Assembly: GCA_037200905.1 (NCBI GenBank)
Contig: JBBCGN010000001.1
Location: forward strand, 244,795-308,794
Direction of reading: 5' to 3'
Source of the DNA: a bacterium
Lineage (GTDB): Bacteria > Patescibacteriota > Minisyncoccia > Phycocordibacterales > UBA9973
DNA: 64,000 bases
The notes under the pieces are model-generated. The model did no database searches. It had not been told where the DNA came from and was given only the letters and a program-made list of their open reading frames with translations. This document shows, in pieces, positions 27,050 through 48,405 of this stretch. Both the position numbers and the translations under genes were made by a program. Position 1 is the first letter of the stretch; each line of letters starts with the position of its first letter.

Positions 27050-27057
27050 ACTCCATT

Positions 27058-27130
27058 CGACCGTTTATAGCTTAACTTCCTTCTTTAAAATTGTGTAGTT
27101 GACTTGTTAGCTATATTGCTCCGTAAATCT
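27058..27130. repeat. Left copy of a ~72-bp direct repeat flanking the ABC/TrmB cassette
   Basis: cgaccgtttatagCTTAACTTCCTTCTTTAAAaTTGTGTAGTTGACTTgttagctatattGCTCCGTAaaTCTC, compared with 30477..30548. The 35-bp core has one mismatch. Confidence 0.85.
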
Positions 27131-27803
27131 CTTTACGCAATTGATTAAATTCCTCGGTAAATTTAATTTCTGGATTTCGTGGTCTTGGAAACGGAACGAT
27201 GAATTCTTTTGTAAAACCCGTCGGATGAAGAACCAATACTCGGTCAGCTAAAAATAGTGCTTCCTCAATATTGTGAGTAACAAAAATGACTGTCTTTTTG
27301 TGCGTGGTCCACACATCCAACAACCACTTCTGCATTTTATCTCTGGTATACGCGTCAAGCGCTCCGTATGGTTCGTCCATAAGAAGAACATCTGTGTTGT
27401 GAGCAAGTGAACGCGCAATAGCAACTCGCTGAACTTGTCCCCCAGATAGCTCGTCAGGGTACGCGTCCGCTTTGTCTTCCAGTTCTGCAAGCTTGAGGTG
27501 TTCATTTACCATTGCACAATTGTCTTTTGTATCACCTTTCAATCCGAAAGCTATATTTTCGGAAACTGTCAGCCATGGGAAGGCGGCATAATTTTGGAAA
27601 ACCATTCCAATGTTTCCAGACAAAGAGACCTCTCCTTGATACGGAATGAAATTCGCAAGAGCATGAAGCAAGCTACTTTTACCACTTCCAGATTTACCGA
27701 CAATCGCTACAAATTCTCCTTTGCTCACTTCGAAGGAAACATTCTCAAGTGCAGAGTGGTTCTTGTAACTTACATTTAGATTTTTGACAGTTATCTGGTT
27801 CAT
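27111..27803 (-). CDS. ABC transporter ATP-binding protein (nitrate/sulfonate/taurine NitT-type)
   Basis: GKSGSGKSSLL (Walker A), LSGGQVQRVAIARSL (signature), VLLMDEPYGALD (Walker B). Confidence 0.85.
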   Translation of the reverse strand: MNQITVKNLNVSYKNHSALENVSFEVSKGEFVAIVGKSGSGKSSLLHALANFIPYQGEVSLSGNIGMVFQNYAAFPWLTVSENIAFGLKGDTKDNCAMVNEHLKLAELEDKADAYPDELSGGQVQRVAIARSLAHNTDVLLMDEPYGALDAYTRDKMQKWLLDVWTTHKKTVIFVTHNIEEALFLADRVLVLHPTGFTKEFIVPFPRPRNPEIKFTEEFNQLRKEIYGAI

Positions 27804-28555
27804 TTTTGTGAAAGAGTTAGCCATGGAAAGATTCGGCGAGTAGCCAACACAAAGAGTTGATCGGTAACAGCGCCGAGCGTCCCTAGAACAACTAATGCCG
27901 CTATCATTTCATCAATCCGGTACGAAAGAGATGATATTGAGATTCGATATCCAATACCGCTTGAGGCTCCTGACAGTTCAGACACGAAGACCATTACAAA
28001 CCCGATTGCGATAGCTGTTCGAATACCGGAAATAATGAAAGGAAGACTTGCAGGAAAAATTACTTCCCGAAACATCTTGAAACGAGACAAAGCAAAAAGT
28101 CTTGCGCTCCACAAGAACGTCTGCGGTATTTGTTGGGCGCCGATATATGCACCAATCCATACTGGGAAAAAGACAGCGAATGCTATGGAAAATATCTTTG
28201 CGCCATCATCAATACCAAACCAAACAATAATGAGTGGGATAATGGCTACAGGAGGCAACGGCCTAAGTATCTGAATGATAGGGTTTATTGCCTTTGCTAT
28301 GGACTTTATACGGCCTGTAACTAAACCGGTACAAATACCGATAACTGAACCGAGAGTCAGCCCGACTACAAGTCTCCAAAGACTGTCTCTGAAATCATAA
28401 AAGACAGTACCGGATATAATCATTTCCCAAAGAGCTATGGCAACTTTTGATGGTGGCGGAAATAAAGCAGGATTAACAAAACCACTACGAGATACTAATT
28501 CCCACAGTATACATACTGAAATAATTGGAAGAATAAACCATAGGAATTTTTTCAT
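27800..28555 (-). CDS. ABC transporter permease (NitT/TauT family)
   Basis: 251 aa, six TM segments, BPD_transp_1-like ..FREVIFPASLPFIISGIRTAIAIGF.. Confidence 0.8.
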   Translation of the reverse strand: MKKFLWFILPIISVCILWELVSRSGFVNPALFPPPSKVAIALWEMIISGTVFYDFRDSLWRLVVGLTLGSVIGICTGLVTGRIKSIAKAINPIIQILRPLPPVAIIPLIIVWFGIDDGAKIFSIAFAVFFPVWIGAYIGAQQIPQTFLWSARLFALSRFKMFREVIFPASLPFIISGIRTAIAIGFVMVFVSELSGASSGIGYRISISSLSYRIDEMIAALVVLGTLGAVTDQLFVLATRRIFPWLTLSQK

Positions 28556-28571
28556 GGGTCATGAGATTGCT

Positions 28572-29591
28572 TTAAATACCAACTGCTCCCGAAGAAATCT
28601 TTTTGAGCGGAGCACTGTAGATAACATCCTGGAAATTTGGAATTACAGTATCTTTAGTTACTTTACCGCTATCTTTAGCCCACTGTGCTTCTCGATTCAA
28701 GTATTCGAGCAATTGAGGAGTAAGAGCGATGCGGAAATCAAAACTACCCCAGATTCCATCGACTGTTTCCTTGTCGAGTTTTGTGTATTTCATCACTACA
28801 GCTTTTGCTTCCTCTGGATTGTTCTTGGTAAACTTTTCTGCTTCAACAAGTCCTTTCAATAGTTTTTCAAGTGTTGCAGGATTTTCTTTAACAGACTCTT
28901 TTGCTTCTATGACATAAAGTTCTGAATAAATACTCGCGTCAGTGAAAGTGATGGATTTATCACCAAGCTGCTTTTCAGCTATGTACGCGAATGGATCAAA
29001 TACTGCAATAGCATCTACACTTCCACTTATTAGAGCAGCCGGCATATCCTTTGGCGCCTGACTCACGATTTCAACTTGGTCTTTGGAAATACCGAGCTTG
29101 TTCAAAAATTCATAGGTAAAGAATTCCGGCCCACCACCAATAGACGTAGCTATCTTTCGCTTCTTTGCTTTGAAGTATTGATCAGAAGTCTCGAGTCCTG
29201 CTTCTTTGCGCGCAACAACTCGTACTTCATTCTGAGTCTTGCCAACTACTTGCGCAGGCACAACAAATTTATTTCCCTGAAGGGAGGCAAGAGTTACTGG
29301 AACATCACCAGAAATTGAAAAATCCAAAGATCCTCCGAGAAATGCTTCGAGGGCAAACTTACCAGCAGTAAATTCCTTGAGCTCAACATTAAGTCCCTCT
29401 TTTTCAAAAAAGCCTTTGTCTTTTGCCACCATGACCAAGGCCATAGCAGGAGAGGTTTGAATTCCCACTGTTACATGTTCCAGTTCTTTGGGCTGCTTTA
29501 ATCTGGCATGCCAAGCAAATAACCCACCTATTAAGGCAAGGATGATAATGGTCCACAAAATATTTTTTGATGTTTTTGACATATACACCAC
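28572..29591 (-). CDS. ABC transporter substrate-binding protein (NMT1/SsuA-like; probable start 29582)
   Basis: N-terminal anchor, then ..VTVGIQTSPAMALVMVAKDKGFFEKEGLNVELKEFTAGKFALEAFLGGSLDF.. Confidence 0.75.
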   Translation of the reverse strand: MVYMSKTSKNILWTIIILALIGGLFAWHARLKQPKELEHVTVGIQTSPAMALVMVAKDKGFFEKEGLNVELKEFTAGKFALEAFLGGSLDFSISGDVPVTLASLQGNKFVVPAQVVGKTQNEVRVVARKEAGLETSDQYFKAKKRKIATSIGGGPEFFTYEFLNKLGISKDQVEIVSQAPKDMPAALISGSVDAIAVFDPFAYIAEKQLGDKSITFTDASIYSELYVIEAKESVKENPATLEKLLKGLVEAEKFTKNNPEEAKAVVMKYTKLDKETVDGIWGSFDFRIALTPQLLEYLNREAQWAKDSGKVTKDTVIPNFQDVIYSAPLKKISSGAVGI

Positions 29592-29670
29592 AATCTACAG
29601 TTTTGGTAAAGTATTGTAAACACTGTTGTACATTATTGACAACATAAACCGACTTTGATAGCATGAGGAT

Positions 29671-30489
29671 ATGATTGAAGACATACTCAAAAAGCTTGAT
29701 TTGCGCGACGAGGAAATAAAGGCCTTCCTTTTCCTTCTGGAGAACGGACCTCAAACGGCTGGCAATCTAGCTAAAAAGACCGGCCTATCCCGCCCTTCCC
29801 TATATGGGTTCATGCGCAAACTCCAAAAAATGGAGCTAGTTATTGAATCTCAGAAAAACGGCATCAAGACTTTCACAGCAAGTTCAAAAGAAAAAGTTTC
29901 TAGCCTTTTCGATGAGAAAATACAAGAACTAGAGCAAGGCAAGCTCTCAATCGAAAAAGTCTACAGCGAAATCCTCAAAACCGGAGCGACTATCAGTCCG
30001 AAGTTTCAATTATTTGAAGGCAAAGATGGAATGAAGCTCGTACTCAAAGACATGCTTATGTATCGAGACATTGAGACGAAATCATATTGGCCTATAAAAG
30101 CCATGATTGAAATTCTCTCTGAAGATTTTTTCAAAACATTAAATAAGGAGCGTATCCAGCGAAAACTTACGACTCGAGCAATCTGGCCCCAGAACCAAGT
30201 CGTGGATATAAAAAAATACCCTTATCTTGGGACTGGAGAGAAATTTCTCCGAGAAATCCGTGTAGCACCGAAAGATATTGGTTTCTCTATGGGTTACTGG
30301 ATATACGGAAATAAAGTTGCTTTTATTTCTTCCAAGAAAGAAGCTTTCGGATTTATTATCGAGAGTAAGGAGCTCGTTGAAATGCTCTCTTCTCAGTTTG
30401 AAGTCATGTGGAAACTTTCACGTCCCATAAAAGCAAAAGAGAGTGATTCCGCAGAATTTTTAAAAGAACTAAAAAACGACCGTTCGTAA
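29671..30489 (+). CDS. TrmB family transcriptional regulator
   Basis: LDLRDEEIKAFLFLLENGPQTAGNLAKKTGLSRPSLYGFMRKLQKMELV is a TrmB-type wHTH. Transcribed divergently from the ABC operon. Confidence 0.75.
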   Translation: MIEDILKKLDLRDEEIKAFLFLLENGPQTAGNLAKKTGLSRPSLYGFMRKLQKMELVIESQKNGIKTFTASSKEKVSSLFDEKIQELEQGKLSIEKVYSEILKTGATISPKFQLFEGKDGMKLVLKDMLMYRDIETKSYWPIKAMIEILSEDFFKTLNKERIQRKLTTRAIWPQNQVVDIKKYPYLGTGEKFLREIRVAPKDIGFSMGYWIYGNKVAFISSKKEAFGFIIESKELVEMLSSQFEVMWKLSRPIKAKESDSAEFLKELKNDRS

Positions 30490-30548
30490 CTTAACTTCCT
30501 TCTTTAAATTTGTGTAGTTGACTTATATCTTATTCTGCTCCGTATCTC
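30477..30548. repeat. Right copy of the ~72-bp direct repeat
   Basis: cgaccgttcgtaaCTTAACTTCCTTCTTTAAAtTTGTGTAGTTGACTTatatcttattctGCTCCGTATCTC. It overlaps the TrmB stop codon and precedes the recombinase gene. Confidence 0.85.
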
Positions 30549-30592
30549 GTTATTCACTAGACTTCGCACGTTGTTCCGGTATGTTCGTGTGT

Positions 30593-31924
30593 ATGGAACA
30601 AATAGCACCATATGGAGCTCAAATAGGCATACCTCCAGTATTGCAGACAGAGCCAGTCAGATACTGTTTATATGCCCGTAAATCGAGCGAGGCAGAAGAA
30701 AAGCAAGCACTCTCAATTGATTCTCAAGTAAAGGAGATGCTCGATATCGCTCAAAAAGATAATCTGAACGTTACCGATATGTACCGCGAATCTCACTCGG
30801 CAAAAGATTGCGGACAGAGACCAGTTTTCAATAAATTACTTCTTGATATCCGTGAGGGTAAATTCGATGGCGTCCTCGTTTGGCATCCAGACCGCCTCTC
30901 TCGAAACGCTGGTGACCTCGGCGCTATAGTCGATTTGCTTGACCAGAAAAAATTGATTGAGATACGGACATATAGCCAGCGCTTTACCAATAATCCAAAT
31001 GAGAAATTCCTTTTGATGATTCTCGGATCACAAGCAAAACTCGAAAATGACAACAAGAGCATCAATGTGAAGCGTGGATTACGAACTCGAGTTGAAAGTG
31101 GTCTATGGCCCAGCGTTGCTCCTACCGGATATCTTAATCACCCTGATCGAACAATGAAATGCCATGTGATTGTTGATCCATTACGATCGCATGTAATACG
31201 ACTCATTTTTGAGAAAGCGGCCTATGAGAAAATGAGTATCCGAAAACTATTCCGCTGGCTCAAAGAGGACGTCCGATTTACTACGAGACATGGAAAACCA
31301 CTCAGTCTAAGCAATATCCAGCTCATTCTTCGTAATAATTTCTATATGGGACTGATCGAATATCCACGAGGGTCAAGCAAGTGGTACCCTGGCAAACACG
31401 AACGCATAATTAGTGAAGAACTTTTCAAAAAGGTTCAGGAAAAATTGGATGCAAGTAAAAATGGTGAACAACGCACTAAAAAAGAGTTCGCGTTTACCCG
31501 TCTTATGAAATGCGGTATGTGTAAATCCGGAGTGACTGCTGAAGAAAAGTTCAAGAACTTAATTGATGGAAGTGTTGCAAAGTACATTTATTATGGCTGT
31601 ACAAGGTTCAATGATAAAAATTGCAAGAATACTTACCTACGCGAAGATAATCTAATTGAGCAATTGCTCGAGATTGTAGATCGAATTGATATCAATAACG
31701 TAGGCATCAAAAGTAAACTTGAAAAAGAAATCGAACGTTTTGGAGAATTTAGAAGCAAGGTTTTGGGAACCACTGAACAAGAGAAAATCGTACAGACAAA
31801 AATTGATGTACGAAACTATATGAAATACCTACTCCGAGAAGGAACGATTCAAGAAAAGCGAGATTTGATGCAGTCGTTCACGAGTAAGCTCATTTTGATC
31901 AACAAAAGAGTTGTGCTCGAGTAA
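30593..31924 (+). CDS. Large serine recombinase (resolvase domain, recombinase domain, zinc ribbon)
   Basis: YCLYARKSSEAEEKQALSIDSQ (catalytic Ser region), VWHPDRLSRNAGD, ..CGMCKSGVTAEE..YYGCTRFNDKNCKN. Start taken as MEQIAPYG; an alternative start is 30581. Confidence 0.85.
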   Translation: MEQIAPYGAQIGIPPVLQTEPVRYCLYARKSSEAEEKQALSIDSQVKEMLDIAQKDNLNVTDMYRESHSAKDCGQRPVFNKLLLDIREGKFDGVLVWHPDRLSRNAGDLGAIVDLLDQKKLIEIRTYSQRFTNNPNEKFLLMILGSQAKLENDNKSINVKRGLRTRVESGLWPSVAPTGYLNHPDRTMKCHVIVDPLRSHVIRLIFEKAAYEKMSIRKLFRWLKEDVRFTTRHGKPLSLSNIQLILRNNFYMGLIEYPRGSSKWYPGKHERIISEELFKKVQEKLDASKNGEQRTKKEFAFTRLMKCGMCKSGVTAEEKFKNLIDGSVAKYIYYGCTRFNDKNCKNTYLREDNLIEQLLEIVDRIDINNVGIKSKLEKEIERFGEFRSKVLGTTEQEKIVQTKIDVRNYMKYLLREGTIQEKRDLMQSFTSKLILINKRVVLE

Positions 31925-31928
31925 AAAA

Positions 31929-32768
31929 CTATTCTGATTTTACTTCTCCAGATTCAAGCTTAGTAACGATTTCATTCATAGTGTAATGCACAAATTGTTT
32001 TCCAAGCTCAGTTAATTCATATTGTTTATCATCATCAAAAGCAGAGGTAGCATAGCGCACACTACCCGCAGGCTTCGATGTTTTTTTGCTGGGACGTATT
32101 ATTACATTTCCTTGATAATCCCTTTCTTTATGCTGTCTTATTACATGCCCTGTACTTAAATCATGTACGAGTAACTTAAATAAATCTGCTTCGGCCGAAT
32201 CTTCTCGAACAGCTTCACCGTGTATTTGATCCCAAATTTCTTGCCTTGTATAACCTGGATTATTAAATACAACTCTTACAACAGCAAAGTGAGCTTCTGA
32301 ATATATGTCAATCCATGAGACAAACATGCGAACTACATCATCTGAGCAAATTTTAGTAGAAGCCGAATTTGCAAGTAAATTTCTTATCAACTTTCTCTTC
32401 TCTTCGCTTTCTGCCGCAGACCAATCTCGGAAACACTTTTTCACAATCTTTAAATACTCAGGACTTTGCAACCTTTCTCTAATTTTTTCATCGGTTTGAT
32501 CTACACGTGCCATAACTTCCATGATAGTTATGGCAATCTCTTTTATTTCATCCTCTTGTAGTTTAAGCCATGTACCAAATATGTTATTCAAATTTTCTTG
32601 CTCTTTTTCAGACCATGATCCTCCTATGCCACCAATGGCTCCCCCAATAACCGGAATAGCACTTAAACAAGCAAGTGCAAAGCGAGCAGCTTTTGGTCCT
32701 GAACCTGATTCTAAAGCTTCATCAAGTTGTTTTCTTAAGTCACTTTTTTCTTCTTTGTCATCTTTCAT
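31929..32768 (-). CDS. Hypothetical protein with an N-terminal glycine-zipper hydrophobic segment
   Basis: ..AARFALACLSAIPVIGGAIGGIGGSW.. followed by a helical region. It lies 16 nt downstream of the HEPN-like gene on the same strand. Confidence 0.4.
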   Translation of the reverse strand: MKDDKEEKSDLRKQLDEALESGSGPKAARFALACLSAIPVIGGAIGGIGGSWSEKEQENLNNIFGTWLKLQEDEIKEIAITIMEVMARVDQTDEKIRERLQSPEYLKIVKKCFRDWSAAESEEKRKLIRNLLANSASTKICSDDVVRMFVSWIDIYSEAHFAVVRVVFNNPGYTRQEIWDQIHGEAVREDSAEADLFKLLVHDLSTGHVIRQHKERDYQGNVIIRPSKKTSKPAGSVRYATSAFDDDKQYELTELGKQFVHYTMNEIVTKLESGEVKSE

Positions 32769-32784
32769 ATTAATTTACTTTAAA

Positions 32785-33576
32785 CTACTTAGAGCTTTTA
32801 TCTGCTAATTTAGCAAGTAAACTTACGAAAGCAATGAACTCTAGAGCCATTTCTGGATCATCTTTTATAATTTTATGTGCACGAGGATTTCTTAAGCCAG
32901 CGACTGCACCCGAGAACATCATCATGAATCCTTTTTGCTCATCAATATCTGAAGTATCTGCAAGAGTATTAAATTTCAATACAGGACTCTTGGAACTAAA
33001 TACAAACTCCATAAGTGCTATTCCGTCTTTATCATCAATCCCACTATTCATTCTCACAAGAGCATTTAATGCTTTAACTGCATCTTCAATCGCGTTGGAA
33101 TAATGCCCATCTTTAAAAAGATTTCCAACTGCTCTTTCAATTGCAGGATGAAGCTCAAGACCCTCATATGCTTTAAGTGTTTTCCCAGATGAAGTTTGCC
33201 CAGCATCCCCAAGTTCTTCTAAAAAGATTGCTTTTATACCCTCAAGTTGTTGCCTAGATTCTGTTACTGATTCACTGACGCTTTGTTTAATTTCTCCAAG
33301 AGTTATATCTGGCCACCAACTACCTGGATTAAGGCTAGTAACACCATGGCGGTATCTTTCATACTCAACCGTATTAGTTCCAAAAATAGAAGCCAGAGTA
33401 GCCTCAAGGGTTTTTTCTAATGTAAGAACTGTGGGATCGCCATATTTAGTGATCGAATTTATATCTAGATTTTCTAGATCTTTGATTCTTCTGTCGATCT
33501 TAGGAATAGCTGCTTGCATCTGTTGAAATGACAAATTAGCTTCTACAGGTTCTGATTTCTTAGGTTTTTGGGACAT
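32785..33576 (-). CDS. TIGR02391 (Hypoth_Ymh)-like protein with an Rx4H HEPN-type motif
   Basis: ELHPAIERAVGNLFKDGHYSNAIEDAVKALNALVR..GFMMMFSGAVAGLRNPRAHK.. The N-terminal ~130 aa look like coiled coil. Confidence 0.65.
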   Translation of the reverse strand: MSQKPKKSEPVEANLSFQQMQAAIPKIDRRIKDLENLDINSITKYGDPTVLTLEKTLEATLASIFGTNTVEYERYRHGVTSLNPGSWWPDITLGEIKQSVSESVTESRQQLEGIKAIFLEELGDAGQTSSGKTLKAYEGLELHPAIERAVGNLFKDGHYSNAIEDAVKALNALVRMNSGIDDKDGIALMEFVFSSKSPVLKFNTLADTSDIDEQKGFMMMFSGAVAGLRNPRAHKIIKDDPEMALEFIAFVSLLAKLADKSSK

Positions 33577-33652
33577 ATATAAATTATACTCTTAATCTTA
33601 ATTTTTAAACGAACAGACCACTTTAGGTCACTGGGTACGAAAAACTAAACTG

Positions 33653-33726: not shown

Positions 33727-33963
33727 CTACATCTTCGATCTTAACTCCTTCTTTCCTTTTGCAGTCTTGTAGTACCTTTCTTTACGGAATGCCTCATATT
33801 TATCATCATACGGTTCGAAATATAAAATCTCAAATGGAACACGAGATTTGGTAGATTTTACTTTGCCCGAATTGTGATAATTCAAACGATTTTCTAAAGA
33901 TTCAGTACAACCAATATATTGGTTATCGTCCTTTTTGCTTTTTAAGACATACACGTAATGCAT
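33727..33963 (-). CDS. Small GIY-YIG nuclease family protein
   Basis: MHYVYVLKSKKDDNQYIGCTESLENRLNYHNSGK..R.PFEILYFE..KYEAFRKERYYK. Its stop codon is 3 nt from tRNA-Gln position 1. Confidence 0.8.
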   Translation of the reverse strand: MHYVYVLKSKKDDNQYIGCTESLENRLNYHNSGKVKSTKSRVPFEILYFEPYDDKYEAFRKERYYKTAKGKKELRSKM

Positions 33964-33964
33964 A

Positions 33965-34032
33965 CTGTTGTCCTACATTAGCCTCGCCCGTAGGCTGGAG
34001 CCTTCGGGCTACGGCCGAGGGACGATCTCCCA
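33965..34032 (-). pseudogene. Decayed copy of the tRNA-Gln 5' half, interrupted by a 39-nt GC-rich hairpin
   Basis: Minus strand reads TGGGAGATCGTC[CCTCGGCCGTAGCCCGAAGGCTCCAGCCTACGGGCGAGG]CTAATGTAGGACAACAG, against the intact TGGGAGATCGTCTAATGGTAGGACAACAGG. Confidence 0.8.
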
Positions 34033-39914: not shown

Positions 39915-41108
39915 TTACGAAGGCTCTTTCCCGGGGAAAATCCTTTTAATGTGGTAGGCCATGCGCACCTTGTATTTGCGCCAGACGAACGGCAGCAGGT
40001 CGCGCTTGCGTTCGAGCCCCCAAGCCTGTGCGAGATAATCCACAAAGCGGTATGCGTCGCGAGAAGACTTCCCTTTTGCTTCGAATTGCCAATAGGTGCG
40101 CCACAGCCTCGGCACCCCGCCCCAGGGGGCATGGACCGTATTGGTCTTTTTATAATATGCTCTGACTTTCTGCGATTCGAGCGGCAAAGCGAGGATTGCC
40201 GCTTTTGCTGGTTCCGGCAAGGAGATGAAATTACTATTAAGCAGATAGCGAAATGCCATATATATTTCCACCTCAAAACCGTATTTCTTCGTCTTTTCCA
40301 GAAACAAGTCCCAGTCGATCGGCAGCGTACGGATGAGATATACTGCATCGGTGACGAAATGCAATGTCTTTACGGGAGCGCCTTCGGCGCCGTGGACAAT
40401 GACATGAATGAGCATGTCTTCGGCACGCAATGTGCGATACTGTTTTTCTTTATACGCGAATGCCCGAGCATGCCCCCATACGTCGCGAGCAAGAACGGTT
40501 TCCCGCTCATCAATGCCGCCTTTGGCTTCGAAGATCCGCCAGTGCATGTCGATTTCCATGCGCTGCTCATTCATGAACGTAATTTCTTTGACGATGCGCG
40601 GCAGGCTCTCGTCGGAGAAGTGGTCGAGCTTCGGAAATTGCCTGGTTTTCAGCTTCCAGCCGGCACCGAGCATGAGCGTAATGGCCCGCTTTGCGTTCTC
40701 GGGATGAACAAGCACGTCGGAATCGCCCAAGAATCGCGCACCTTCATCTTTATAGGCCTCGATCAATAGCGGTATGCCCTTGAGAAGCAGCACAGGGATG
40801 CGGTTTTCTTCGAGCAACGCGACAGTTTTTGCCATAGCGTCAAGCAGTCCCTGATTCTTCACCCAAGCCAGTTTGTACACGCCCCTGATCCTCCCCAAGA
40901 GGGGATCCTGCATGTTCAGTTTCTTGAGACGGATGGCGAGGAGCGGCAGGAGACGGAGAGTGCCATGGTCGACGGCATCGAAAGCGACAGCGTTCTTCCA
41001 CGCGTCCCACAGGAGCGGGAAATCCTTGTCGGCGCACAGCAGGAGATCGAGAAACAGCTGCTCGTCTTTGTCGGGAAAACTCTTGGGAAAAGGCAGAGGG
41101 GCTGACAT
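39915..41108 (-). CDS. Uncharacterised nucleotidyltransferase family protein (NTP_transf_5-like)
   Basis: 397 aa. ..LLLKGIPLLIEAYKDEGARFLGDSDVLVHPENA.. matches the family pattern. Last gene of the PqqD/kinase operon. Confidence 0.6.
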   Translation of the reverse strand: MSAPLPFPKSFPDKDEQLFLDLLLCADKDFPLLWDAWKNAVAFDAVDHGTLRLLPLLAIRLKKLNMQDPLLGRIRGVYKLAWVKNQGLLDAMAKTVALLEENRIPVLLLKGIPLLIEAYKDEGARFLGDSDVLVHPENAKRAITLMLGAGWKLKTRQFPKLDHFSDESLPRIVKEITFMNEQRMEIDMHWRIFEAKGGIDERETVLARDVWGHARAFAYKEKQYRTLRAEDMLIHVIVHGAEGAPVKTLHFVTDAVYLIRTLPIDWDLFLEKTKKYGFEVEIYMAFRYLLNSNFISLPEPAKAAILALPLESQKVRAYYKKTNTVHAPWGGVPRLWRTYWQFEAKGKSSRDAYRFVDYLAQAWGLERKRDLLPFVWRKYKVRMAYHIKRIFPGKEPS

Positions 41109-41113
41109 ATTAC

Positions 41114-41803
41114 TTATTTCTCTTTTTTCCTGCCGAGAGACTCCCTGACGATCTTCAGATAATCGGCGCGGGAAGCGCGTTCCGTGACACCGGTATTAGT
41201 CTCATGGATGCGGCGCATCAGGAACACTTCCGGAATGACCTCCGACACGAGGCCCGCTTCTTCGGCTTTGGCGATCCAGTCGATGAATTCCCCCACCCGC
41301 CATCTCGGATCGAACAGTCCGGCTTTCCGGAAAAACGATGCTCGCGCGAGCATCGTCCCCGCGATGCGTCCCGGCATGGGATCGGGATCGCAGTAGCGCA
41401 GCTTCTTCACTTCGTCGGAAAGCTCGGGACTCGCGAAGCACTGCAGATGGGTGAACGACAGATCGAGGGCGGGATTTGCCGCGAAGCGATCGAGCTGGGC
41501 CGCCAGCTTGCCCGGCTTCCAGACGTCGTCGGCATCGAGGAACGCGATGAAGTCTCCCCCTGCCAGGGACACCCCCTTGTTGCGCGCTTCGCCGCTGCCC
41601 GTATTCTCGGGACTGTCGATCAGCCGTATCGCGTCGCCGAACGACCTGAGCACCTCGAGTGAACCGTCTGTCGACGCGTCATTGACGCAGATGATCTCGA
41701 TATGCCGATGCATTTGCGCCAAAACGCTTTCGACGGCTTCCTTGACATATTTTTCGGCGTTGAATACCGGCATGATGACGCTTACGAGCGGTTGGTCTTG
41801 CAT
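41114..41803 (-). CDS. Glycosyltransferase family 2
   Basis: VSVIMPVFNAEKYVKEAVESVLAQ..IEIICVNDASTDGS..FLDADD. Confidence 0.8.
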   Translation of the reverse strand: MQDQPLVSVIMPVFNAEKYVKEAVESVLAQMHRHIEIICVNDASTDGSLEVLRSFGDAIRLIDSPENTGSGEARNKGVSLAGGDFIAFLDADDVWKPGKLAAQLDRFAANPALDLSFTHLQCFASPELSDEVKKLRYCDPDPMPGRIAGTMLARASFFRKAGLFDPRWRVGEFIDWIAKAEEAGLVSEVIPEVFLMRRIHETNTGVTERASRADYLKIVRESLGRKKEK

Positions 41804-41811
41804 AAATACCG

Positions 41812-42879
41812 CTATATCATAGCACTTTTCAGGAATGATTTGATGGTGTCCGGAACTGTCCGCACATCCGGGCCGAGATCGAGGAAATAGCATGGGATTT
41901 TCTCTAGAATCTCCTTGAACATGGCGATCTTGTTCGTCTCGGCGAGCGGCAGTTGGAACAGCGTGGTCGGAGCGATAGCTATCATGGCTTCCATCTTCGA
42001 AGCTCGCACGATACGCGTCTCGGTACTAGTAATGCGCGGGATGAGCACGGCCCTGAGCGGCGATGCGCGCTTCACCTGTTCGGGAAAGATATCCGAGAGG
42101 AATATGACCGCTTTCTCGCGCTCTCCGAAATCCTTGTTCCAGATTTTTTCGGCAAACTCTGGAAAGTGAGTGAGTCCTTCCCGCGTAACTATAGCTGAAT
42201 GATACAGGCTGTGCGCCATAACCTTGTCCGCTGTCTCGATCGCCACGTAATCATCGCCCAAGTAATCCATGCCGGAGAGGATCGAGGAAAGGGCAGTAGT
42301 CGATTTCCCGGAGCCGCTTTTTGCGGTCAGAAGTACCGATATTCCATCCTGTCCCACTACTGCGCCATGGATGAAATGAATGCGAGATTCGCTGAAGAAC
42401 CAGTGGAAGATAGTGCGAAATGGTGCGCCGAGCACCCAGTCCGGCAACTGCGATGCATCCTGGGTCCAAAAATATCCGACGTGTTTTTCCTTATCATAAA
42501 AATTGAGCGACTCTTCGCCGCCGACATATACTCCGAGGAAAGAATCGCCGTCTATAGCGGCATCTTTCTCGAAACTGCTGTCGTTCCACGGCGGAATGAC
42601 TTCCGTCGCGGCCCCTTTTGAATCCCATGCGTGGATAGTGAGATCAGCGTGAAATGATTCATGTGTTTCATTATGCGCGAGAGCGAGAGTAAAGATGTTG
42701 GCAACTTCCCTGCCATAGAGATGGACTGCAATTCGCTTGTCTGCGATGACGTAATGCTTCACTGTCGGAGGAGATATCCTTTTTCTCTCTTCAAGAGAAG
42801 GTACCATGATGCGCTTGAAATACTCACGCGACACCGCGAGAAAATTCTTCATGAGGATGTGTCGGGGTTTGAAACTCAT
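41812..42879 (-). CDS. HPr kinase-related (HprK-like) P-loop protein
   Basis: FIHGAVVGQDGISVLLTAKSGSGKSTTALS. Start taken at MSFKPRH (42879), 4 nt after the upstream GT2 stop. Confidence 0.65.
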   Translation of the reverse strand: MSFKPRHILMKNFLAVSREYFKRIMVPSLEERKRISPPTVKHYVIADKRIAVHLYGREVANIFTLALAHNETHESFHADLTIHAWDSKGAATEVIPPWNDSSFEKDAAIDGDSFLGVYVGGEESLNFYDKEKHVGYFWTQDASQLPDWVLGAPFRTIFHWFFSESRIHFIHGAVVGQDGISVLLTAKSGSGKSTTALSSILSGMDYLGDDYVAIETADKVMAHSLYHSAIVTREGLTHFPEFAEKIWNKDFGEREKAVIFLSDIFPEQVKRASPLRAVLIPRITSTETRIVRASKMEAMIAIAPTTLFQLPLAETNKIAMFKEILEKIPCYFLDLGPDVRTVPDTIKSFLKSAMI

Positions 42880-42883
42880 ATCG

Positions 42884-43555
42884 TTATCCTGCCTGGCCGC
42901 GGGCGCGGGCCAGCTTTTTCCTGAGAGAAGCCATCTGCCCTTGCGCGACATAGCCCCTGTCATTGGTCTGATTGTTTTCGTGCCTGCGGAACATGAACGT
43001 CACCTCGGGAATGCGCTTTTCCCTCGCGGCGCTTTCTCGGAGCCGTATGTTCCAGTCAAAGTCTTCCCCTTTACGCATCGTCTCGTCAAAAAAGCCGACC
43101 ATATTGAAGACTTCCCTCTTGTACAATGCCGCTCCCAAAAGTTCCGGATGGAAAAGCGTCTCGATCACCTCTCTCGTCCGGTCCGGCTGTATGCGGAAAA
43201 TTTCTGTCACTCCTTGCGCGTAATCGTACCCATCGTTTCCGAGATGCGGCAAAAGAAGTTTGATGTGTTCGTCCGTCCACAGATCGTCTTGATCGATAAA
43301 TGCAATGATGGAACCCTTCGCATGCTTCAAGCCGAGGTTTCTCGCGGCCGCCTGGCCCTTGTTCTCTTGCGAGAGCAAGGTGATGCGATCCCCGTAGGGC
43401 GCGAGCACAGCGAGAGATTCTTCCGGAGAACCGTCATTGACCACGATCACTTCCAGAGTCGCATACTTCTGCCTAAATATCGATTCAAGCGCGAGAGCGA
43501 TGAATCGCTCGCCTCTGTAATACGGTATGATCACTGAGATGAGCGGCGCTTCCAT
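42884..43555 (-). CDS. Glycosyltransferase family 2
   Basis: ISVIIPYYRGERFIALALESIFRQKYATLEVIVVNDGSPEES..FIDQDD. Confidence 0.8.
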   Translation of the reverse strand: MEAPLISVIIPYYRGERFIALALESIFRQKYATLEVIVVNDGSPEESLAVLAPYGDRITLLSQENKGQAAARNLGLKHAKGSIIAFIDQDDLWTDEHIKLLLPHLGNDGYDYAQGVTEIFRIQPDRTREVIETLFHPELLGAALYKREVFNMVGFFDETMRKGEDFDWNIRLRESAAREKRIPEVTFMFRRHENNQTNDRGYVAQGQMASLRKKLARARGQAG

Positions 43556-43558
43556 GAG

Positions 43559-43994
43559 TTATTTATTTTCCTTCAGCTTCGGCCAGCCCGCGATGTCCAC
43601 GTCGTGGATCGGATCGGCAAGGAGCATCTCCTGCATGTCGGAATACTTGGTGATGCCCGGCACGATAAAAGATTTTTTCTCCGCCTGAGTTTCCGGTACG
43701 AGCAGTGCCGGAGCTGTTGGGGATTCCGAGATAAGATTATCAGCTTGGAGCGATGCGATAAGATCTGTTACAGATTTTTCTATCGTTTCGATAGACGCAT
43801 CGTAGCGAGCAGCCAGAGCTTGCGTGATTTGCCCGAGAGAATGCCCGGCTTTGAGATATTCCCAGACCAGGCTGCCTGTCTCGTTCATGCTGTAATACGT
43901 GCCGTTCTGTAGATCGATGATGATGGTCTCGCCGTCGAGAGTCTCGCTGATGGCGCGGGAATGCGTTTATCGCATACGTTTTATCTGAAGACAT
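43559..43994 (-). pseudogene. PqqD-family (RRE-type) protein (one frame break near 43945)
   Basis: MSSDKTYAINAFP, then in another frame AISETLDGETIIIDLQNGTYYSMNETGSLVWEYLKAGHSLGQITQALAARY..SVTDLIASLQADNLI..LLADPIHDVDIAGWP. Confidence 0.7.
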
Positions 43995-44105
43995 ACCGCT
44001 ATATTATACAAAAAATACCGAAAAGCAAAGGCACGCAGCAATATGACTAGGATTGTTACCCATCAGATGTGGAGAATACATTTCCACAGATCTCGTCGGC
44101 GCGAA

Positions 44106-44785
44106 CTAGCGAGCGCCGGTTGAACCGTTGATTTCAGTGGAGGCTGCCGGCTCGATGACGCTGAAGGTGCTCTGTTCGCTCGTGCCGAGAAACGGCACCG
44201 CTCTTCGCGATGGCCTGCACGTCCCAGGCGAAGTCGCACAAATACGGCGGCTTGCACGGACCGGTATATATGCCGCTCACTGCCACCTCTGTGGCAGTAC
44301 CCGCGTCTTTCGTGACGATAGGCTGGCTTGATTTCATGGCCGGCGTCCCGTTTCTGCCCCTGCATCAATTGCCAGAACCCTGAGGCGGTACGTGACCGGT
44401 TCTTTCGGCTTCGGGACAAGAGGCGTCCATCTGAAGGCGATAGCCTTGAGCGCCTCATCGGCTGCCAGTTTTTTCTTGTCTTCGGGAAGAAGATTATGAG
44501 CATTTTCCTGCTGCTCATTCTTTTCACTGATTTTAATATCAGAATCTATGACGGCGTTGAATTGGCCTGCCGTCGGCTTGTCGCCCTTGGCTGAATCCCG
44601 TCCAGCCGGAATATCTCCGTCTTGGAATTTATCTTTCAGTTCGGTTCTCTGGCTTTCAGCGGGCTTGTCCCCTTTTTCAAATAACTCTTCAATGCCTCGC
44701 GCTTGACGACGGCTTATGTTCCGGCACCAACTAAAATTACGATTAATACAATAAAGATAGGCGAAAATCCTTTTTGATTTTTCAT
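44106..44785 (-). pseudogene. Hypothetical protein with a pilin-like N-terminal anchor (three or more frame breaks)
   Basis: My translation gives MKNQKGFSPIFIVLIVILVGAGT / ..GIEELFEKGDKPAESQRTELKDKF.. / ..KSSQPIVTKDAGTATEVAVSGIYTGPCKPPYLCDFAWDVQA.. / ..AVPFLGTSEQSTFSVIEPAASTEINGSTGAR. Confidence 0.4.
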
Positions 44786-44941
44786 ATCCAGATTATACCA
44801 CTTTTCTCTCTGCGCGACTTAGTGGACGATGTTAGAACTGCTATTAGGAATTATAATAAGCATATTTATATCCCTGATTTAACATCTTTTATTTTATCTT
44901 GATTCTTTCTAAATTCAACACCCTGCATACCATTATCACTA

Positions 44942-45253
44942 TTACCTCCCTTCTGCTATGGGATTAGGAGGAATTAAGCCTACAATATTATCCCAACTCG
45001 TTTTTAAATTTTGAATAGTTACTCCACTTTGAGGTTTGAAAATTATAGCAATTTGTCCATTGTTTTCAGTAACAATTATATCTGAAGACAAGCTTGTCCG
45101 TATTAAATCGATATTTGCTCCTTGGGCTTGAAGAAAAATAGCTTGGGTTCCTTGTAATAAATCGTAAAACCAGAACCTATTGGGTCGGTAACCTTTTTTA
45201 TATAATTCGAAAACAGCATCGCGGACTTGCGTTTCAAGCTGTTCTCGATACAA
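44942..45253 (-). CDS. Hypothetical protein (TTG start, or continuation of 45256..45615 through a frame break)
   Basis: AT-rich. The frame stays open about 14 codons upstream of the TTG. No motif recognised. Confidence 0.35.
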   Translation of the reverse strand: MYREQLETQVRDAVFELYKKGYRPNRFWFYDLLQGTQAIFLQAQGANIDLIRTSLSSDIIVTENNGQIAIIFKPQSGVTIQNLKTSWDNIVGLIPPNPIAEGR

Positions 45254-45255
45254 GC

Positions 45256-45615
45256 CTAAGTTATACTCATCTTCTGTCGCAAGCGGATTATCAGCTCTCT
45301 TTGTTCAAGCTCCTTTTTATTTTTTATAACTTCTCCATTGCGTATTCGAATATTTTGCGCGATAAACTTCGCTTCTTCCGGAGACAAAACTCTTTCACTA
45401 ATGGCATAGAAAATTAAGTCGAAGTAATCGGGATAATCTCTAATTAACGCCTGAAGTTCTTTGCTGTCTTTAACATTTTGTAAGTAGTTTTCCTTGTTTT
45501 TTTGCAATGAGGGTCCTGTTATATCGTGAAAATATAACCCTAACTTCTCGTCGAGGCCATCAAGATTTAATGGAATATCCTGAGAACTATTACTGAACGA
45601 AGCTTCAATGCTCAT
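45256..45615 (-). CDS. Hypothetical protein
   Basis: Start taken as MSIEASFSNSS at 45615, 3 nt below the tRNA-Asp 3' end. The longer track ORF reads into the tRNA. Confidence 0.35.
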   Translation of the reverse strand: MSIEASFSNSSQDIPLNLDGLDEKLGLYFHDITGPSLQKNKENYLQNVKDSKELQALIRDYPDYFDLIFYAISERVLSPEEAKFIAQNIRIRNGEVIKNKKELEQRELIIRLRQKMSIT

Positions 45616-45618
45616 ATG

Positions 45619-45692
45619 CGCGACCGAGCGGATTTGAACCGCCAACCTCCCGCGTGACAGGCGGGTGCTCTAACCAGTTGAGCTACGATCGC
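45619..45692 (-). tRNA. tRNA-Asp (anticodon GTC)
   Basis: GCGATCG TA GCTC AACTGGTTA GAGC A CCCGC CTGTCAC GCGGG AGGTT GGCGG TTCAAAT CCGCT CGGTCGC G. Confidence 0.85.
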
Positions 45693-45739
45693 ATTTTTTT
45701 CTTGCTACCATACCTTTCTCAATTATACCTGTCCGCCTC

Positions 45740-45782
45740 GGCGGGTGCTCGCTACAGTCTAATTGAGTTGAGCTACGAACGC
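45740..45782 (-). pseudogene. Decayed copy of the tRNA-Asp 5' half with a D-loop insertion
   Basis: GCGTTCGTAGCTCAACTCAATTAGA[CTGTAGCGA]GCACCCGCC, against the intact GCGATCGTAGCTCAACTGGTTAGAGCACCCGCC. Homology stops at the anticodon loop. Confidence 0.7.
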
Positions 45783-45801
45783 ATTTTTCCTCTAACGAGG
45801 G

Positions 45802-45874
45802 TGTCGGCGACAGGGATCGAACCTGTGACCTGAGGCTTATGAGTCCTCCGCTCTACCGACTGAGCTACGCCGAC
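45802..45874 (-). tRNA. tRNA with CAT anticodon (Met type)
   Basis: GTCGGCG TA GCTC AGTCGGTA GAGC G GAGGA CTCATAA GCCTC AGGTC ACAGG TTCGATC CCTGT CGCCGAC A. One A/G mismatch at the base of the anticodon stem. Confidence 0.8.
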
Positions 45875-46080
45875 ATGAAGCAAACTGCTTTGCTTCATGT
45901 CGAGGACGATACCGCGAGGTGAAGCATAAGGACGATGCGAGGCTGAAGGCCGAGCCGTCCTTTCAAGCAACTTATCTAAAACGAGCAAACTGCTTTGCTT
46001 CATGTCCGATGGCGATACCACCGAGTATAGCAAGAGGGCGATGCGAGGCGGTAGCCGAGCAGCCCTTTCAAGCAATTTAC
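45875..46080. repeat. Two tandem ~100-105-nt units, each starting (plus strand) with an 8-10-bp hairpin
   Basis: Unit A is 45875-45976 and unit B is 45983-46080. Shared blocks are gcaaactgctttgcttcatgtc, cgatacc, gcgatgcgaggc, gccgagc and cctttcaagcaa. Confidence 0.8.
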
Positions 46081-46129
46081 TACTTACTACTTCGGCGTGA
46101 GAGACACTGGCATGTCACTTGCCGACTTG

Positions 46130-46200
46130 TTGCGGGGTCCGGAATTGAACCGGAGTCTCAAGGTTATGAGCCTTGCGAGATACCTCTTCTCTACCCCGCT
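46130..46200 (-). tRNA. tRNA with CAT anticodon (Met or Ile2 type; A1/A72 mismatch)
   Basis: AGCGGGG TA GAGA AGAGGTA TCTC G CAAGG CTCATAA CCTTG AGAC TCCGG TTCAATT CCGGA CCCCGCA A. Confidence 0.7.
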
Positions 46201-46233
46201 ATATATTTAATCATAACAAGGAGATTTCGGTAT

Positions 46234-46295
46234 GGCTCATAACCTTGGTTATTCGCGCTTATCGTCCTTTCGGAGATACCTTTCTCTACCTCGCT
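46234..46295 (-). pseudogene. Decayed copy of the CAT-tRNA 5' half with an insertion and an inverted anticodon hairpin
   Basis: AGCGAGGTAGAGAAAGGTATCTC[CGAAAGGACGATAAGCGCGAATAAC]CAAGGTTATGAGCC. The loop TTATGAG is the exact complement of CTCATAA. Confidence 0.65.
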
Positions 46296-46337
46296 ATAAA
46301 GCGTTCAAAATAGATTTTTACGCTTTGCCTATTCTAC

Positions 46338-46935
46338 TCATATTTGGCAGAAAAGCAAGCCAAATGAGGCTATATATACCCGAAAATCCCTGAAAATGTC
46401 CTCGTACAGGGCCGTCACCCGCTTGGCCTCGTGAGCGGAGAGATGGAACTGCGGTGCCCTCGTGGGCGACGCGGTTGCGCACCGCATGGGCCTCCCAGGC
46501 GGCGGTCAGATGCGGAAAGGTCTCGCGGTCGGCTTCCCTTGAGCTTGTCGCCGAGCGTTTCGCCCTTGAAGCCCATCTGATGAAGCAGATCTTCGAGCAT
46601 GGAATCAGCCTCGATAATGGCGATCTTCCAGTCCGCGGGCGTCGGAGAAAAGACATGGTCGAGGACCTGGTTCCAGCGGGGATTTTTCGAGCGTGCGCCC
46701 CTCTTGGTCTTCTTGGCCTCCTCGGCGTGGTGGTGGGCATACTCGGCGAGCTCATGCTGCAGAAATTTTTTCTCCTTCGCCCGATCTCAAAGATCCTGAC
46801 CACGGAATACGAGATCAGGAACAGGAAAAAGATGGCGAAAAATGGAAAATACGTCGCGAGGATATTCCCAAGCACCACGAAGTGCGGAAAAGCGATATGC
46901 GGCAGGGCGATGTGAGGGAGGGTGAAAGAAGGCAT
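46338..46935 (-). pseudogene. Membrane-anchored hypothetical protein with a C-terminal Rx4H (DUF4145/HEPN-like) motif (frame breaks; 3' end uncertain)
   Basis: MPSFTLPHIALPHIAFPHFVVLGNILATYFPFFAIFFLFLISY.., ..MLEDLLHQMGFKGETLGDKLK.., ..FPHLTAAWEAHAVRNRVAHEG.. Confidence 0.4.
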
Positions 46936-46974
46936 ATGGATATGATGACCCCTAGATTATAGCACGCCCTCCGG

Positions 46975-48405
46975 CTAGCGGATCGCTTCGAATTTCTTGC
47001 CGGCCTCGAAACAAGGCATCCTCGTCCCAGTGCGAGGCCATGAACTGGATGGAAAGCGGCAGACCCTCGTCGGTCTTGCCGGAAGGGCACCGCGAGCGAC
47101 GGCACGCCCGGGAGAGGTTTGCCGGCGCGGAGAAAATGTCGGAGAGATACATGGAAACAGGATCGTTCACCTTTTCTCCGATCTTGAATGCCGGGGTCGG
47201 CGTGGTAGGAGTGGCGATCAGGGAGACGCCTTCAAAGGCCTTCTTGAGCTCGGCGCGGATCCTTTCGCGCACCTGCACGGCCTTGTTGTATAGGCATCAT
47301 AGTATCCGTGCGAAAGCACGTACGTGCCGAGACAGTATGCGCCTGCGGGCTTCCTTGCCGAAGCCCTTTCCCCCTGCTCTTCTTGTAGACTTCCATCAGG
47401 TTCGCGCTTTCGCGGTCGGTGTAGCCGTAGCGGATGCCGTCGAAGCGGGACAGGTTGGTGGAAACTTCCGCCGGCATGATGATGTAATACGCCGCGAGGG
47501 AATATCTGCACTCTGGAAGCTCGACGTCGACGATCTCATAACCCGCATTTTTGAGCTTTTCGACAGACTGTTTGAAATTTTCCATGACGACGGGATCCAC
47601 GCCATCGGTAAAGAGGTGCCACGGCACGCCGATCTTTTTCATATTCTTCGCATCTCCTTTTTTGACGCGCTTATCCTCTGGGACAGAAGTAACTGTCGTG
47701 CTCGTCATATTTTGAGAGCGCTTTGAAAATTATTTCCGTATCATTCACGGTTTTCCCCGAAGGGCGATACCTGGTCGAGAGAGTTTCCCATGGGGATGAT
47801 GCCCTGGCGTGAAAGGGCGCCGTAGGTGGGCTTGAGCCGACCAGGCCGCAGAAAGACGATGGTTCGCGCACCGAGCCGCAGGTCTCCGTTACCGAGAGCC
47901 ACGAGGGCCATGTCGGCCGCCACGGCGATGGCCGAGCCGCCCGAAGATCCGCCGGGTACGCGGGAAGTATCATGCGGATTGCGAGAAACGCCATAGGCGC
48001 TGTTTTCCGTCGAGGAACCCATGGCGAACTCGTCCATGTTCGTACGGCCCAAAAATACCGCTCCCGGCCGCTTTCAATTCCCTGGATGACCGTGGCATCA
48101 TAGCTGGCAGATAGTTTTCCAAGATTTTTGACGCTGCGGAAGCGATGCGTCCTTCGATCAGGATATTATCCTTATAGCGAACGGTATGCCAGTGAGAAGC
48201 GTGGCCGAGCCGTCGGAAAATTTCTGCTGCGCTACTTCAGCTTGTGCCAGCACGTCGCCATAGACTTCGAGGTAGGCATGGAGCTCGGTATTTTTCTCTG
48301 CAATAACCCCAAGATATGCTTCCGCTAATTCTTTGCAGAGTGCAATCGCCCGCCTTGAGCGCTGCATGAGCTTTTTTCGATTGTCAGATGTTCCAGATCG
48401 ATCAT
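46975..48405 (-). pseudogene. gatA: Glu/Asp-tRNA amidotransferase subunit A (five or more frame breaks)
   Basis: [36 protein letters not shown] in ORF 47741..48052. N-terminal, middle and C-terminal pieces lie in ORFs 48158, 47232 and 46952. The reconstructed end is ..DALFEAGKKFEAIR. Confidence 0.8.

Follow-up and report, generated by a model that had tools for sequence, protein, structure and literature searches.

Collaborative homing, in which a free-standing endonuclease and an intron devoid of an open reading frame (ORF) occupy one site, has so far been described in phages (PMC3984707). Truncated gene copies are found beside endonuclease cassettes in fungal mitochondria (PMC4162613), and in the T4/T6 tRNA cluster the GIY-YIG endonuclease SegB performs intronless homing and drives a tandem amplification of tRNA and segB (PMC2330249, PMC13096335), the tRNA-locus repeats driven by the endonuclease being formed through microhomology of the tRNA 5' end with the ORF 3' end (PMC13096335). 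Prokaryotic tRNA gene fragments are known as 3' or internal pieces, from integrating elements and from the spacers of clustered regularly interspaced short palindromic repeats (CRISPR) (PMC9897764). Here, we analyse a 64,000-nucleotide (nt) stretch of bacterial DNA (henceforth the window; contig JBBCGN010000001.1) in which a 5' fragment of tRNA-Asp stands 47 nt upstream of the intact gene, and we reason that this fragment is probably (with a probability of roughly 0.6) the scar of a homing-endonuclease invasion at tRNA-Asp, of which the ORF and the intron have since been lost. Two further points of comparison are a mobile GIY-YIG ORF of Allomyces, which is said to carry a foreign atp6 C-terminus, and the E. 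coli tyrT locus, which reportedly holds 178-bp partial tandem repeats, each with the last 19 nt of tRNA-Tyr. Our literature searches found no description of an arrangement like that of the window in Patescibacteria.

All parts of the locus lie on the minus strand. Six tRNA genes were found in the window by ARAGORN and Rfam, among them a tRNA-Met of elongator type (CAT, hereafter MetE; 45799..45875, Rfam 68.8 bits) and an intact, intron-free tRNA-Asp (GTC; 45618..45692, Rfam 69.5 bits). The pseudo-tRNA-Asp (GCGTTCGTAGCTCAACTCAATTAGACTGTAGCGAGCACCCGCC, 45740..45782), recognised by its alignment to tRNA-Asp and by orthologous copies in the related loci L028 and L082-L094, begins 16 nt past the 3' end of MetE (gap 45798-45783) and comprises the acceptor 5' strand, the D stem, an enlarged D loop (45751-45765 in place of GGTTA), C32 and, of the anticodon stem, the 5' arm; a motif specific to the fragment is, for example, AGCGAGCACCCGCCNNGGCGG. 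A hexamer, AAAAAT (45783..45788), is present before both the fragment and the tRNA-Asp gene and is covered by a direct repeat (D6) of 23 nt, 96% identical, at a spacing of 90. Homology to the gene stops at tRNA position 32/33, which is the centre of a DNA palindrome, CCGCC-GA-GGCGG (45733..45744). The sequence then continues through GAGGCGG (45739-45733) and ACAGG (45732-45728) to TATAAT (45722-45727), the last two composing a junction motif (45722..45732) that is common to endonuclease-bearing relatives (as CACnnGG then TATAAT), and a 29-nt spacer (45693..45721) leads from there to tRNA-Asp. The 47 nt between fragment and gene contain no real ORF, just a 13-codon ATG frame (ATG 45709-45711) that enters the tRNA.

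An earlier, sequence-only reading of the window had described 45740-45782 as positions 1-32 of tRNA-Asp with a D-loop insertion, a homology halting at the anticodon loop before a short inverted repeat and TATAAT, and no ORF separating the fragment from the intact gene; all of this was borne out. Gapped local alignment of the 106-nt spacer with tRNA-Asp recovers positions 1-33 at a score of 33, with A4>T as the sole substitution and a D loop longer by 10 nt. This score is matched by 0/5000 dinucleotide shuffles of the spacer (mean 13.2, standard deviation 2.1) and by 0/2332 other window segments (maximum 24); a sequence model (R1) gives the fragment 59.8 bits. The pseudogene-reporting covariance scan that had been proposed was run with RF00005 over 24000-48000 and, even at E<=10, left the fragment unmatched and returned nothing beneath the six real tRNAs, while ARAGORN called no tRNA in the fragment region. 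The fragment has neither a T arm nor a 3' acceptor strand and belongs neither to the canonical tRNA genes nor to the pseudogenes that a model can detect. Extending the tRNA homology into GGCGG was not significant in the window (3118/5000), and as the relatives side with the palindrome we favour a fold-back copy for GGCGG over an anticodon-stem 3' arm that was kept. Caution is due with details at the level of one base (A4>T, spacer indels), which may be assembly errors, since gatA (amidase; 46318-48100, minus strand) falls apart into three or more overlapping frames in the window; the ORF adjoining it is broken too, and these may be pseudogenes or assembly indel errors.

A first line of evidence comes from relatives. 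At ten loci (L002, L052, L107, L108/109, L110, L111/112, L113, L114/115), MetE is followed by a tRNA-Asp-derived leader, by TATAAT or a hexamer close to it, by a LAGLIDADG ORF (PF14528) and then by the 5' exon of tRNA-Asp, which ends in CCTGT. The usual leader consists of TGGTTAG, 8 nt, CCTGTCAC, nnGG and TATAAT (it is more decayed in L110, L113 and L114), and in most of these loci TATAAT or its close variant comes immediately after the ..CTGTCACnnGG of the fragment. Because this leader keeps the D loop and the anticodon loop of tRNA-Asp at the exact tRNA spacing, it too is a stranded tRNA-Asp fragment, decayed in a different manner. The flanking protein genes differ among the endonuclease loci while the block itself stays constant in all contexts examined. 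The LAGLIDADG ORF ends beside or inside the tRNA, its stop being the TAG of tRNA positions 8-10 in L002 and L052 (..KMRS*). It is intact in L002 (220 amino acids, two LAGLIDADG motifs), truncated and frameshifted in L052 (..LRGYFDGDGG..) and present as a C-terminal remnant in L041, and its family (Pfam PF14528) counts 2570 proteins at E<=1e-10, all from Patescibacteria wherever a name is given.

The tRNA-Asp genes of these loci are themselves interrupted by what appears to be a group I intron. Matches to Rfam RF00028 in L052, L107, L108 and L111 reach 39-48 bits (E 3e-7 to 6e-10), short of the gathering score of 50; in L052, where tRNA-Asp is split after CCCTGT, the match has 42 bits (E 8e-9) and is likewise under that score, and in the other endonuclease loci the intron was read from the sequence. 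In L052 and L107 the intron lies after U35 (U35 / C36), and the joined exons are called as tRNA-Asp(GTC). The tRNA-Asp of L107, L110 and L114 is of the window's type (GCGATCG..CACCCGCC..). In the window itself tRNA-Asp is continuous, RF00028 is unmatched throughout, and the gene is not of the group I intron-containing kind. In this clade, tRNA-Asp appears to be home to two selfish elements, one of which is a free-standing LAGLIDADG endonuclease gene directly upstream.

Similarities between the spacers and the endonuclease gene provide a second line of evidence. The C-terminus of the ORF (..LFLKRKxxKFExYIK) is kept in homologues down to ~52% identity and, being conserved at such distance, indicates that the coding 3' end belongs to the ORF. 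The L028 spacer (AGAGGCAGAAGGTTGAAAAGTAAACATA) agrees at a colinear position with the ORF 3' end of L107 (AGAGGGAAAAGTTTGAAAACTACATA) in 23/28 nt, a match equalled by 3/1000 shuffles. The 47 nt of the window resemble six endonuclease leaders plus first codons (z=3.0; 10/1000 shuffles as good), and its ACA-GGTATAAT..AGG..TG..AAAAAAA can be aligned along the ACAGGGTATAAT..AGG..TGCCAATATATAAAAAAA of L108. We consider it probable that 45693..45721 is a remnant of the endonuclease 5' leader and first codons, fused to the tRNA, and likely that the TATAAT at 45722-45727 was once the -10 promoter element of the endonuclease gene. The sequence-only reading had supposed the same kind of event as at tRNA-Gln, perhaps with the loss of an inserted ORF. 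Its view of the fragment as a stranded 5' piece of tRNA-Asp is supported, and the loss of an ORF is made more credible by the endonuclease ORF that relatives hold at exactly this place (10 loci) and by the spacer similarities (10/1000 and 3/1000). The equivalence with tRNA-Gln does not follow: the family here is LAGLIDADG, not GIY-YIG, an intron is involved, and, as a GIY-YIG gene neighbours tRNA-Gln even in fragment-free relatives, the two sites do not emerge as one type of event.

The palindrome points to the same site. Its centre measures 0-2 nt (GA in the window; CCGCCT / AGGCGG in L086; CCGCCC-A-GGGCGG in L083), which is too tight for an RNA loop, and it takes in C32, outside the tRNA stem; the centre lies 2-3 nt 5' of the intron site U35/C36 seen in L052 and L107. 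A retained stem would fit these features less well than would the fold-back repair of an anticodon-loop break. Fragment homology ends (C32/T33) near the point of intron insertion (after U35 in L052 and L107), as it should in the scar of an invasion.

The window belongs to a Patescibacteria (Paceibacteria) contig; a search with the M48 peptidase near tRNA-Asp retrieved Patescibacteria alone (Nomura-, Kaiser- and Taylorbacteria, 'Minisyncoccia'), none of them above 76% identity. The order initiator tRNA-Met (Met-i), MetE, Asp beside gatA is kept in 12 loci retrieved with this peptidase. L028, which was found via the peptidase and hence independently of any fragment pattern, holds the fragment with the identical D-loop change 38 nt upstream of its tRNA-Asp; its MetE-to-Asp block agrees with that of the window at 80% over 278 nt, with the fragment ~47/53 identical and the spacer unalignable. 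A metagenome scan with a fragment-specific pattern, in which the distance to tRNA-Asp was left free, yielded 13 loci (~9 distinct), and in 13/13 MetE is followed by the fragment, again with this D-loop change, and then by intact tRNA-Asp, at a period of 86-96 nt. The sample of window-type fragments accordingly holds 15 loci (the window, L028 and the 13 metagenome loci L082-L094), most of them ascertained with a pattern that fixes 24/55 positions. Viral contigs scanned with it gave 0 matches, and a phage origin was rejected, as blastn of 44000-48000 against phage records returned tRNA-sized matches only.

The GatA and M48 proteins of the fragment-bearing lineages are just 50-70% identical to those of the window, from which it follows that the fragment is old; these lineages are no nearer to the window than the fragment-free L018 and L070, whose tRNA-Asp is the same. 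By this measure the event behind the fragment is ancient and common to many lineages, not a recent local accident. The acceptor strand of the fragment tracks the tRNA-Asp of its own genome (GCGATCG, GCGGTCG, GCAGTCG, GCAGCCG). In four loci (L082, L083, L085, L086) fragment and gene also share, without a difference, an upstream stretch of 19-30 nt, and in L086 the gene is preceded by a pair of identical fragment units (Tandem Repeats Finder, TRF: period 96, 2.2 copies, 100% identity). In the columns outside the search pattern, mean pairwise identity is 0.59 (D-loop insertion) and 0.66, against 0.35 in the spacer. A sequence-only model of the fragment, run over 80 peptidase loci, reached L015 and L052, the former with a variant whose D loop is normal, whose D stem holds a 35-nt guanine-cytosine (GC) hairpin and whose loop is truncated in the same way (CCCGCC-AAG-GCGGA). 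At 13856-13925 of L015, tRNA-Asp is cut off at ~position 69 and runs into unrelated coding sequence, either by a 3'-end insertion or by an assembly join.

The fragment, its age, the endonuclease and intron arrangement of the relatives and the spacer similarities are directly seen, and it is from them that we infer an order of events, a cleavage site, a fold-back repair and any present role. A cassette would have entered an ancestor, and repair of a break in the anticodon loop would have stranded the 5' part of the resident gene upstream, beside the incoming promoter, the endonuclease gene and a replacement tRNA-Asp. The broken end would have been sealed by a small fold-back copy, the CCGCC-nn-GGCGG palindrome, by which the presumed target of the nuclease would also be removed. 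In the lineage of the window, the endonuclease ORF would subsequently have been deleted almost wholly and the intron lost, such that the fragment, TATAAT, ~30 nt and the intact gene are left. The distance being short after the ORF deletion, recombination between fragment and gene could keep the acceptor end of the fragment in agreement with the gene and, in some lineages, do likewise for the flank upstream of it. Endonuclease-driven repeats via tRNA/ORF microhomology could yield the repeat-like structure of L082-L086, and TATAAT may now help to transcribe tRNA-Asp.

Compared with the described systems, the locus resembles collaborative homing in that relatives pair a free-standing endonuclease with an ORF-less intron and the window fragment ends 2-3 nt from the intron site. 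The known cases, however, concern phages and protein-coding genes and leave no stranded gene piece, whereas here, as read from sequence alone, a tRNA gene of a cellular bacterium is the target, a 5' pseudo-copy stays behind, and the window has neither endonuclease nor intron. The endonuclease cassettes of organelles, which bring a replacement for the stretch of the gene that they displace and leave a pseudo-fragment, share with our loci the row of partial target-gene copy, endonuclease ORF and intact gene. They duplicate 3' (C-terminal) parts of protein genes, however, while what is duplicated in our loci is the 5' part of a tRNA gene of a bacterium, with the ORF stop inside the tRNA. SegB likewise is a homing endonuclease among tRNA genes, and microhomology repair could account for the 86-96-nt repeats and the L086 array; its repeats, though, are phage-borne, unstable and made of whole tRNA genes plus ORF, while those described here are partial, decayed, ORF-less and stable in the long term. 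The tyrT repeats share with the window a head-to-tail order, the position adjoining a tRNA gene and the inclusion of part of the tRNA, but lie downstream, involve the 3' end and are unconnected with endonucleases or introns. Lastly, tRNA fragments at integration sites (attL/attR; Williams 2002; PMC9897764) are also partial copies near an intact gene, and the window has one such copy 3' of tRNA-Asp (44811-44838), yet these are 3' pieces that flank an integrase element, and ours is a 5' piece with nothing in between. What is new relative to the known systems is thus the bacterial tRNA gene, the stranded 5' pseudo-half and a fossil that outlives its endonuclease.

Several observations weigh against the homing scar. 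A window-type fragment with an ORF between fragment and gene occurs at 0/15 loci. The fragments of the endonuclease loci retain the D loop and the anticodon loop and have lost acceptor and stems; the two forms have decayed differently, so that their common origin, suggested by position and tRNA source, is presumptive. The window spacer shows no significant similarity to the ORF 3' end (732/1000 shuffles), the similarity that it does show is modest (p ~0.01, in A-rich sequence), and comparison of the spacers with the whole 720-nt endonuclease region is uninformative because the sequence is AT-rich, the signal residing in the position-restricted tests alone. Moreover, it is the intron position alone that points to an endonuclease target near the anticodon loop of tRNA-Asp.

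The remaining points against the scar are those that recommend its best-surviving rival, a plain local tandem duplication without any nuclease, in which slippage or unequal crossing-over would have doubled ~90 nt, from ~30 nt upstream of tRNA-Asp to ~position 45; the upstream copy would have decayed (D-loop insertion, loop truncation), with unequal crossing-over holding the 5' parts of both copies alike. The period of 86-96 nt, constant at 15/15 loci, suits one ancestral deletion and plain duplication equally, and the upstream flanks identical over 19-30 nt between fragment and gene (L082, L083, L085, L086), as well as the 2.2 perfect 96-nt units of L086, are also expected from duplication; a 105-nt repeat in the same tRNA cluster of the window (45879-46079) agrees with it. 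Duplication leaves unexplained, however, why the palindromic end falls at the anticodon loop beside the intron/endonuclease site, why the L028 spacer resembles the ORF 3' end and the window spacer the ORF promoter and 5' end, and why 10 other loci hold a tRNA-Asp fragment and an endonuclease gene in the same MetE-Asp interval. In the window, the repeat spans only 23 nt, at spacing 90, and TRF makes no call on it. Our own first reading (the hairpin as a retained anticodon stem, plain tandem duplication, no link to an ORF) was dropped after L015 and L052 had led to the LAGLIDADG ORF and the intron. We hold duplication to be unlikely: this scenario, which the earlier reading had itself named as the one that would tell against it, is weakened by the relatives, yet several loci do look like 86-96-nt tandem repeats.

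A shade less likely again is that the fragment, whatever its origin, is now selected as a control element in the 5' region of tRNA-Asp, be it as an upstream promoter half with TATAAT as its -10 or as a structured leader of the MetE-Asp precursor; such a role is compatible with an endonuclease scar as well as with a duplication. Selection would suit the retention of the fragment across lineages with housekeeping proteins 50-70% identical, the higher mean pairwise identity of the D-loop insertion than of the spacer (0.59 vs 0.35, non-pattern columns) and the agreement of the window with the pattern-independent L028 (~47/53 identical), although most of the sample was ascertained by a pattern fixing 24/55 positions, and L018 and L070 carry the same tRNA-Asp without the fragment. 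As for a structured leader, a stable fold is predicted in the window (z=-3.0), L088 (z=-3.2) and L087 (z=-2.3), but no RNA structure proved to be conserved: z is near 0 in most lineages (stability is significant in 3/12) and the consensus fold of fragment and spacer attains just -5 kcal/mol, with 0 covarying pairs and no compensatory change. A promoter fares no better, since no sigma-70-like -35 stands at the proper distance and the -10-like hexamers sit at inconsistent positions; a consistent promoter upstream of the fragment was searched for and not found.

The attachment-site explanation, by which the fragment would be a part of tRNA-Asp displaced by integrase-borne site-specific integration, could draw on tRNA-Asp being a hot spot of insertion here, with a low-GC islet (44811-45617) between the tRNA-Asp 3' end and a degenerate copy of it, and with three such copies in L028, but is close to refuted: integrase scars duplicate the 3' part of a tRNA and flank the element (PMC9897764), whereas the fragment stems from the 5' part and is separated from the gene by 47 nt that hold no element. 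No matching 3' half lies within 15 kb, and among 12 fragment-bearing loci L028 alone has one downstream. A split tRNA gene of the Nanoarchaeum type was rejected as well, as the window holds no CGAACGC-type 3' half with a T loop and the intact tRNA-Asp is adjacent.

Other tRNA genes of the window and its relatives show comparable irregularities. At 33727-34032 (minus strand) of the window, tRNA-Gln comes after a GIY-YIG ORF (PF01541, 7e-16), and upstream of this ORF stands a 5' fragment of tRNA-Gln whose D arm carries a GC-rich hairpin of 40 nt; the unit of fragment and GIY-YIG recurs, with a varying hairpin loop, in L095 (1430-1815; the genome of L028) and L098, and in L100 and L103 the GIY-YIG gene lies directly upstream of tRNA-Gln without a fragment. 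At 46201-46298 (minus strand) of the window, a 5' fragment of an initiator-like tRNA-Met (46273-46298) gives way to the anticodon arm of the same tRNA, copied in antisense (46234-46247), and the element (..GCGAATAAC..AGGTTATGAGCC) is kept in L015 (13400-13507) and L070 (3240-3338). Since the initiator-like tRNA-Met stands on the opposite strand in many relatives and has a group I intron in L107 and L108, this element may be an inversion or repair scar. Both tRNA-Thr genes of L107 (2485-3024) are preceded by a 5' fragment with a D-loop palindrome, CCTGCCTGCCGGCAGGCAGG, and the GIY-YIG ORF between them ends inside the second fragment. In L073 (11556-11810) and L075 (11041-11335), a tRNA-Ser(GGA) is nested in an older tRNA-Ser, whose halves part between nucleotides 34 and 35: the 5' half is followed after 70 or 138 nt by the intact gene, and this after 11 nt by the 3' half. 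The ends of the insert (TTCCCGATTT..CAAATCGCAAT) are common to both loci; the outer halves of L073 have a matching acceptor stem unlike that of the inner gene, and the outer 3' piece of L075 stops before the acceptor strand.

Downstream of tRNA genes, it is 3' ends that recur. The low-GC islet of the window (33-39% GC), which holds two small ORFs without family matches, is bounded by the degenerate copy of the tRNA-Asp 3' end at 44811-44838 (gttctaacatcgtccactaagtcgcgca), and the three copies of L028 (15099-16580) bracket different cargo genes; such copies have the look of insertions made one after another at the 3' end of the tRNA. Exact copies of 15-19 nt of a tRNA 3' end, which resemble attachment-site repeats with little DNA between, were found 76-213 nt downstream of tRNA-Ser, Val, Leu, Pro and Asp in L024, L025, L026, L030, L035, L046, L047, L056 and L059. 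The 105-nt tandem repeat of the window (45879-46079; 1.9 copies, 82% identity) lies immediately upstream of the elongator tRNA-Met, and its hairpin (AGCAAACTGCTTTGCT) is also present downstream of tRNA-Asp in L026 and L114. A larger low-GC island (~26000-33650, 37-41% vs ~55%) extends downstream of tRNA-Gln and includes Hypoth_Ymh (PF09509, 32785-33576), and between tRNA-Asp and a tRNA-Thr pair (~40000-43900, minus strand) a cluster of PqqD, two family-2 glycosyltransferases, an HPr-kinase-like protein and NTP_transf_5 resembles a peptide-modification cluster.

The feature of the window is a non-coding relic, a fossil, and the clade-wide system to which it points is of more interest than the relic itself. 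With its 2570 LAGLIDADG homologues (E<=1e-10), this would be a large cellular system in which one tRNA target serves both a free-standing endonuclease and an intron lacking an ORF, and its cycle would be readable in living relatives, from invasion and stranding through ORF decay (truncated in L052, a remnant in L041) to ORF loss (the window and L028). We put forward tentatively, as a possibility on which we would not yet rely, that Paceibacteria practise a cellular form of collaborative homing aimed at tRNA genes, and that the pseudo-halves, including those at tRNA-Gln, Met-i, Thr and Ser, are fossils of a clade-wide contest. Each invasion would strand a 5' part that is sealed by a fold-back palindrome and thereby becomes immune to re-cutting, and the pseudo-halves would persist for very long, since recombination would hold them in line with the gene, and might be reused as promoter or leader. 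If this is true, the short pseudo-tRNA pieces upstream of tRNA genes in the candidate phyla radiation (CPR) would be footprints of homing endonucleases and group I introns, neither noise nor integrase scars, and annotators would gain a rule for 5' tRNA fragments, which are now attributed solely to integrating elements or CRISPR spacers (PMC9897764).

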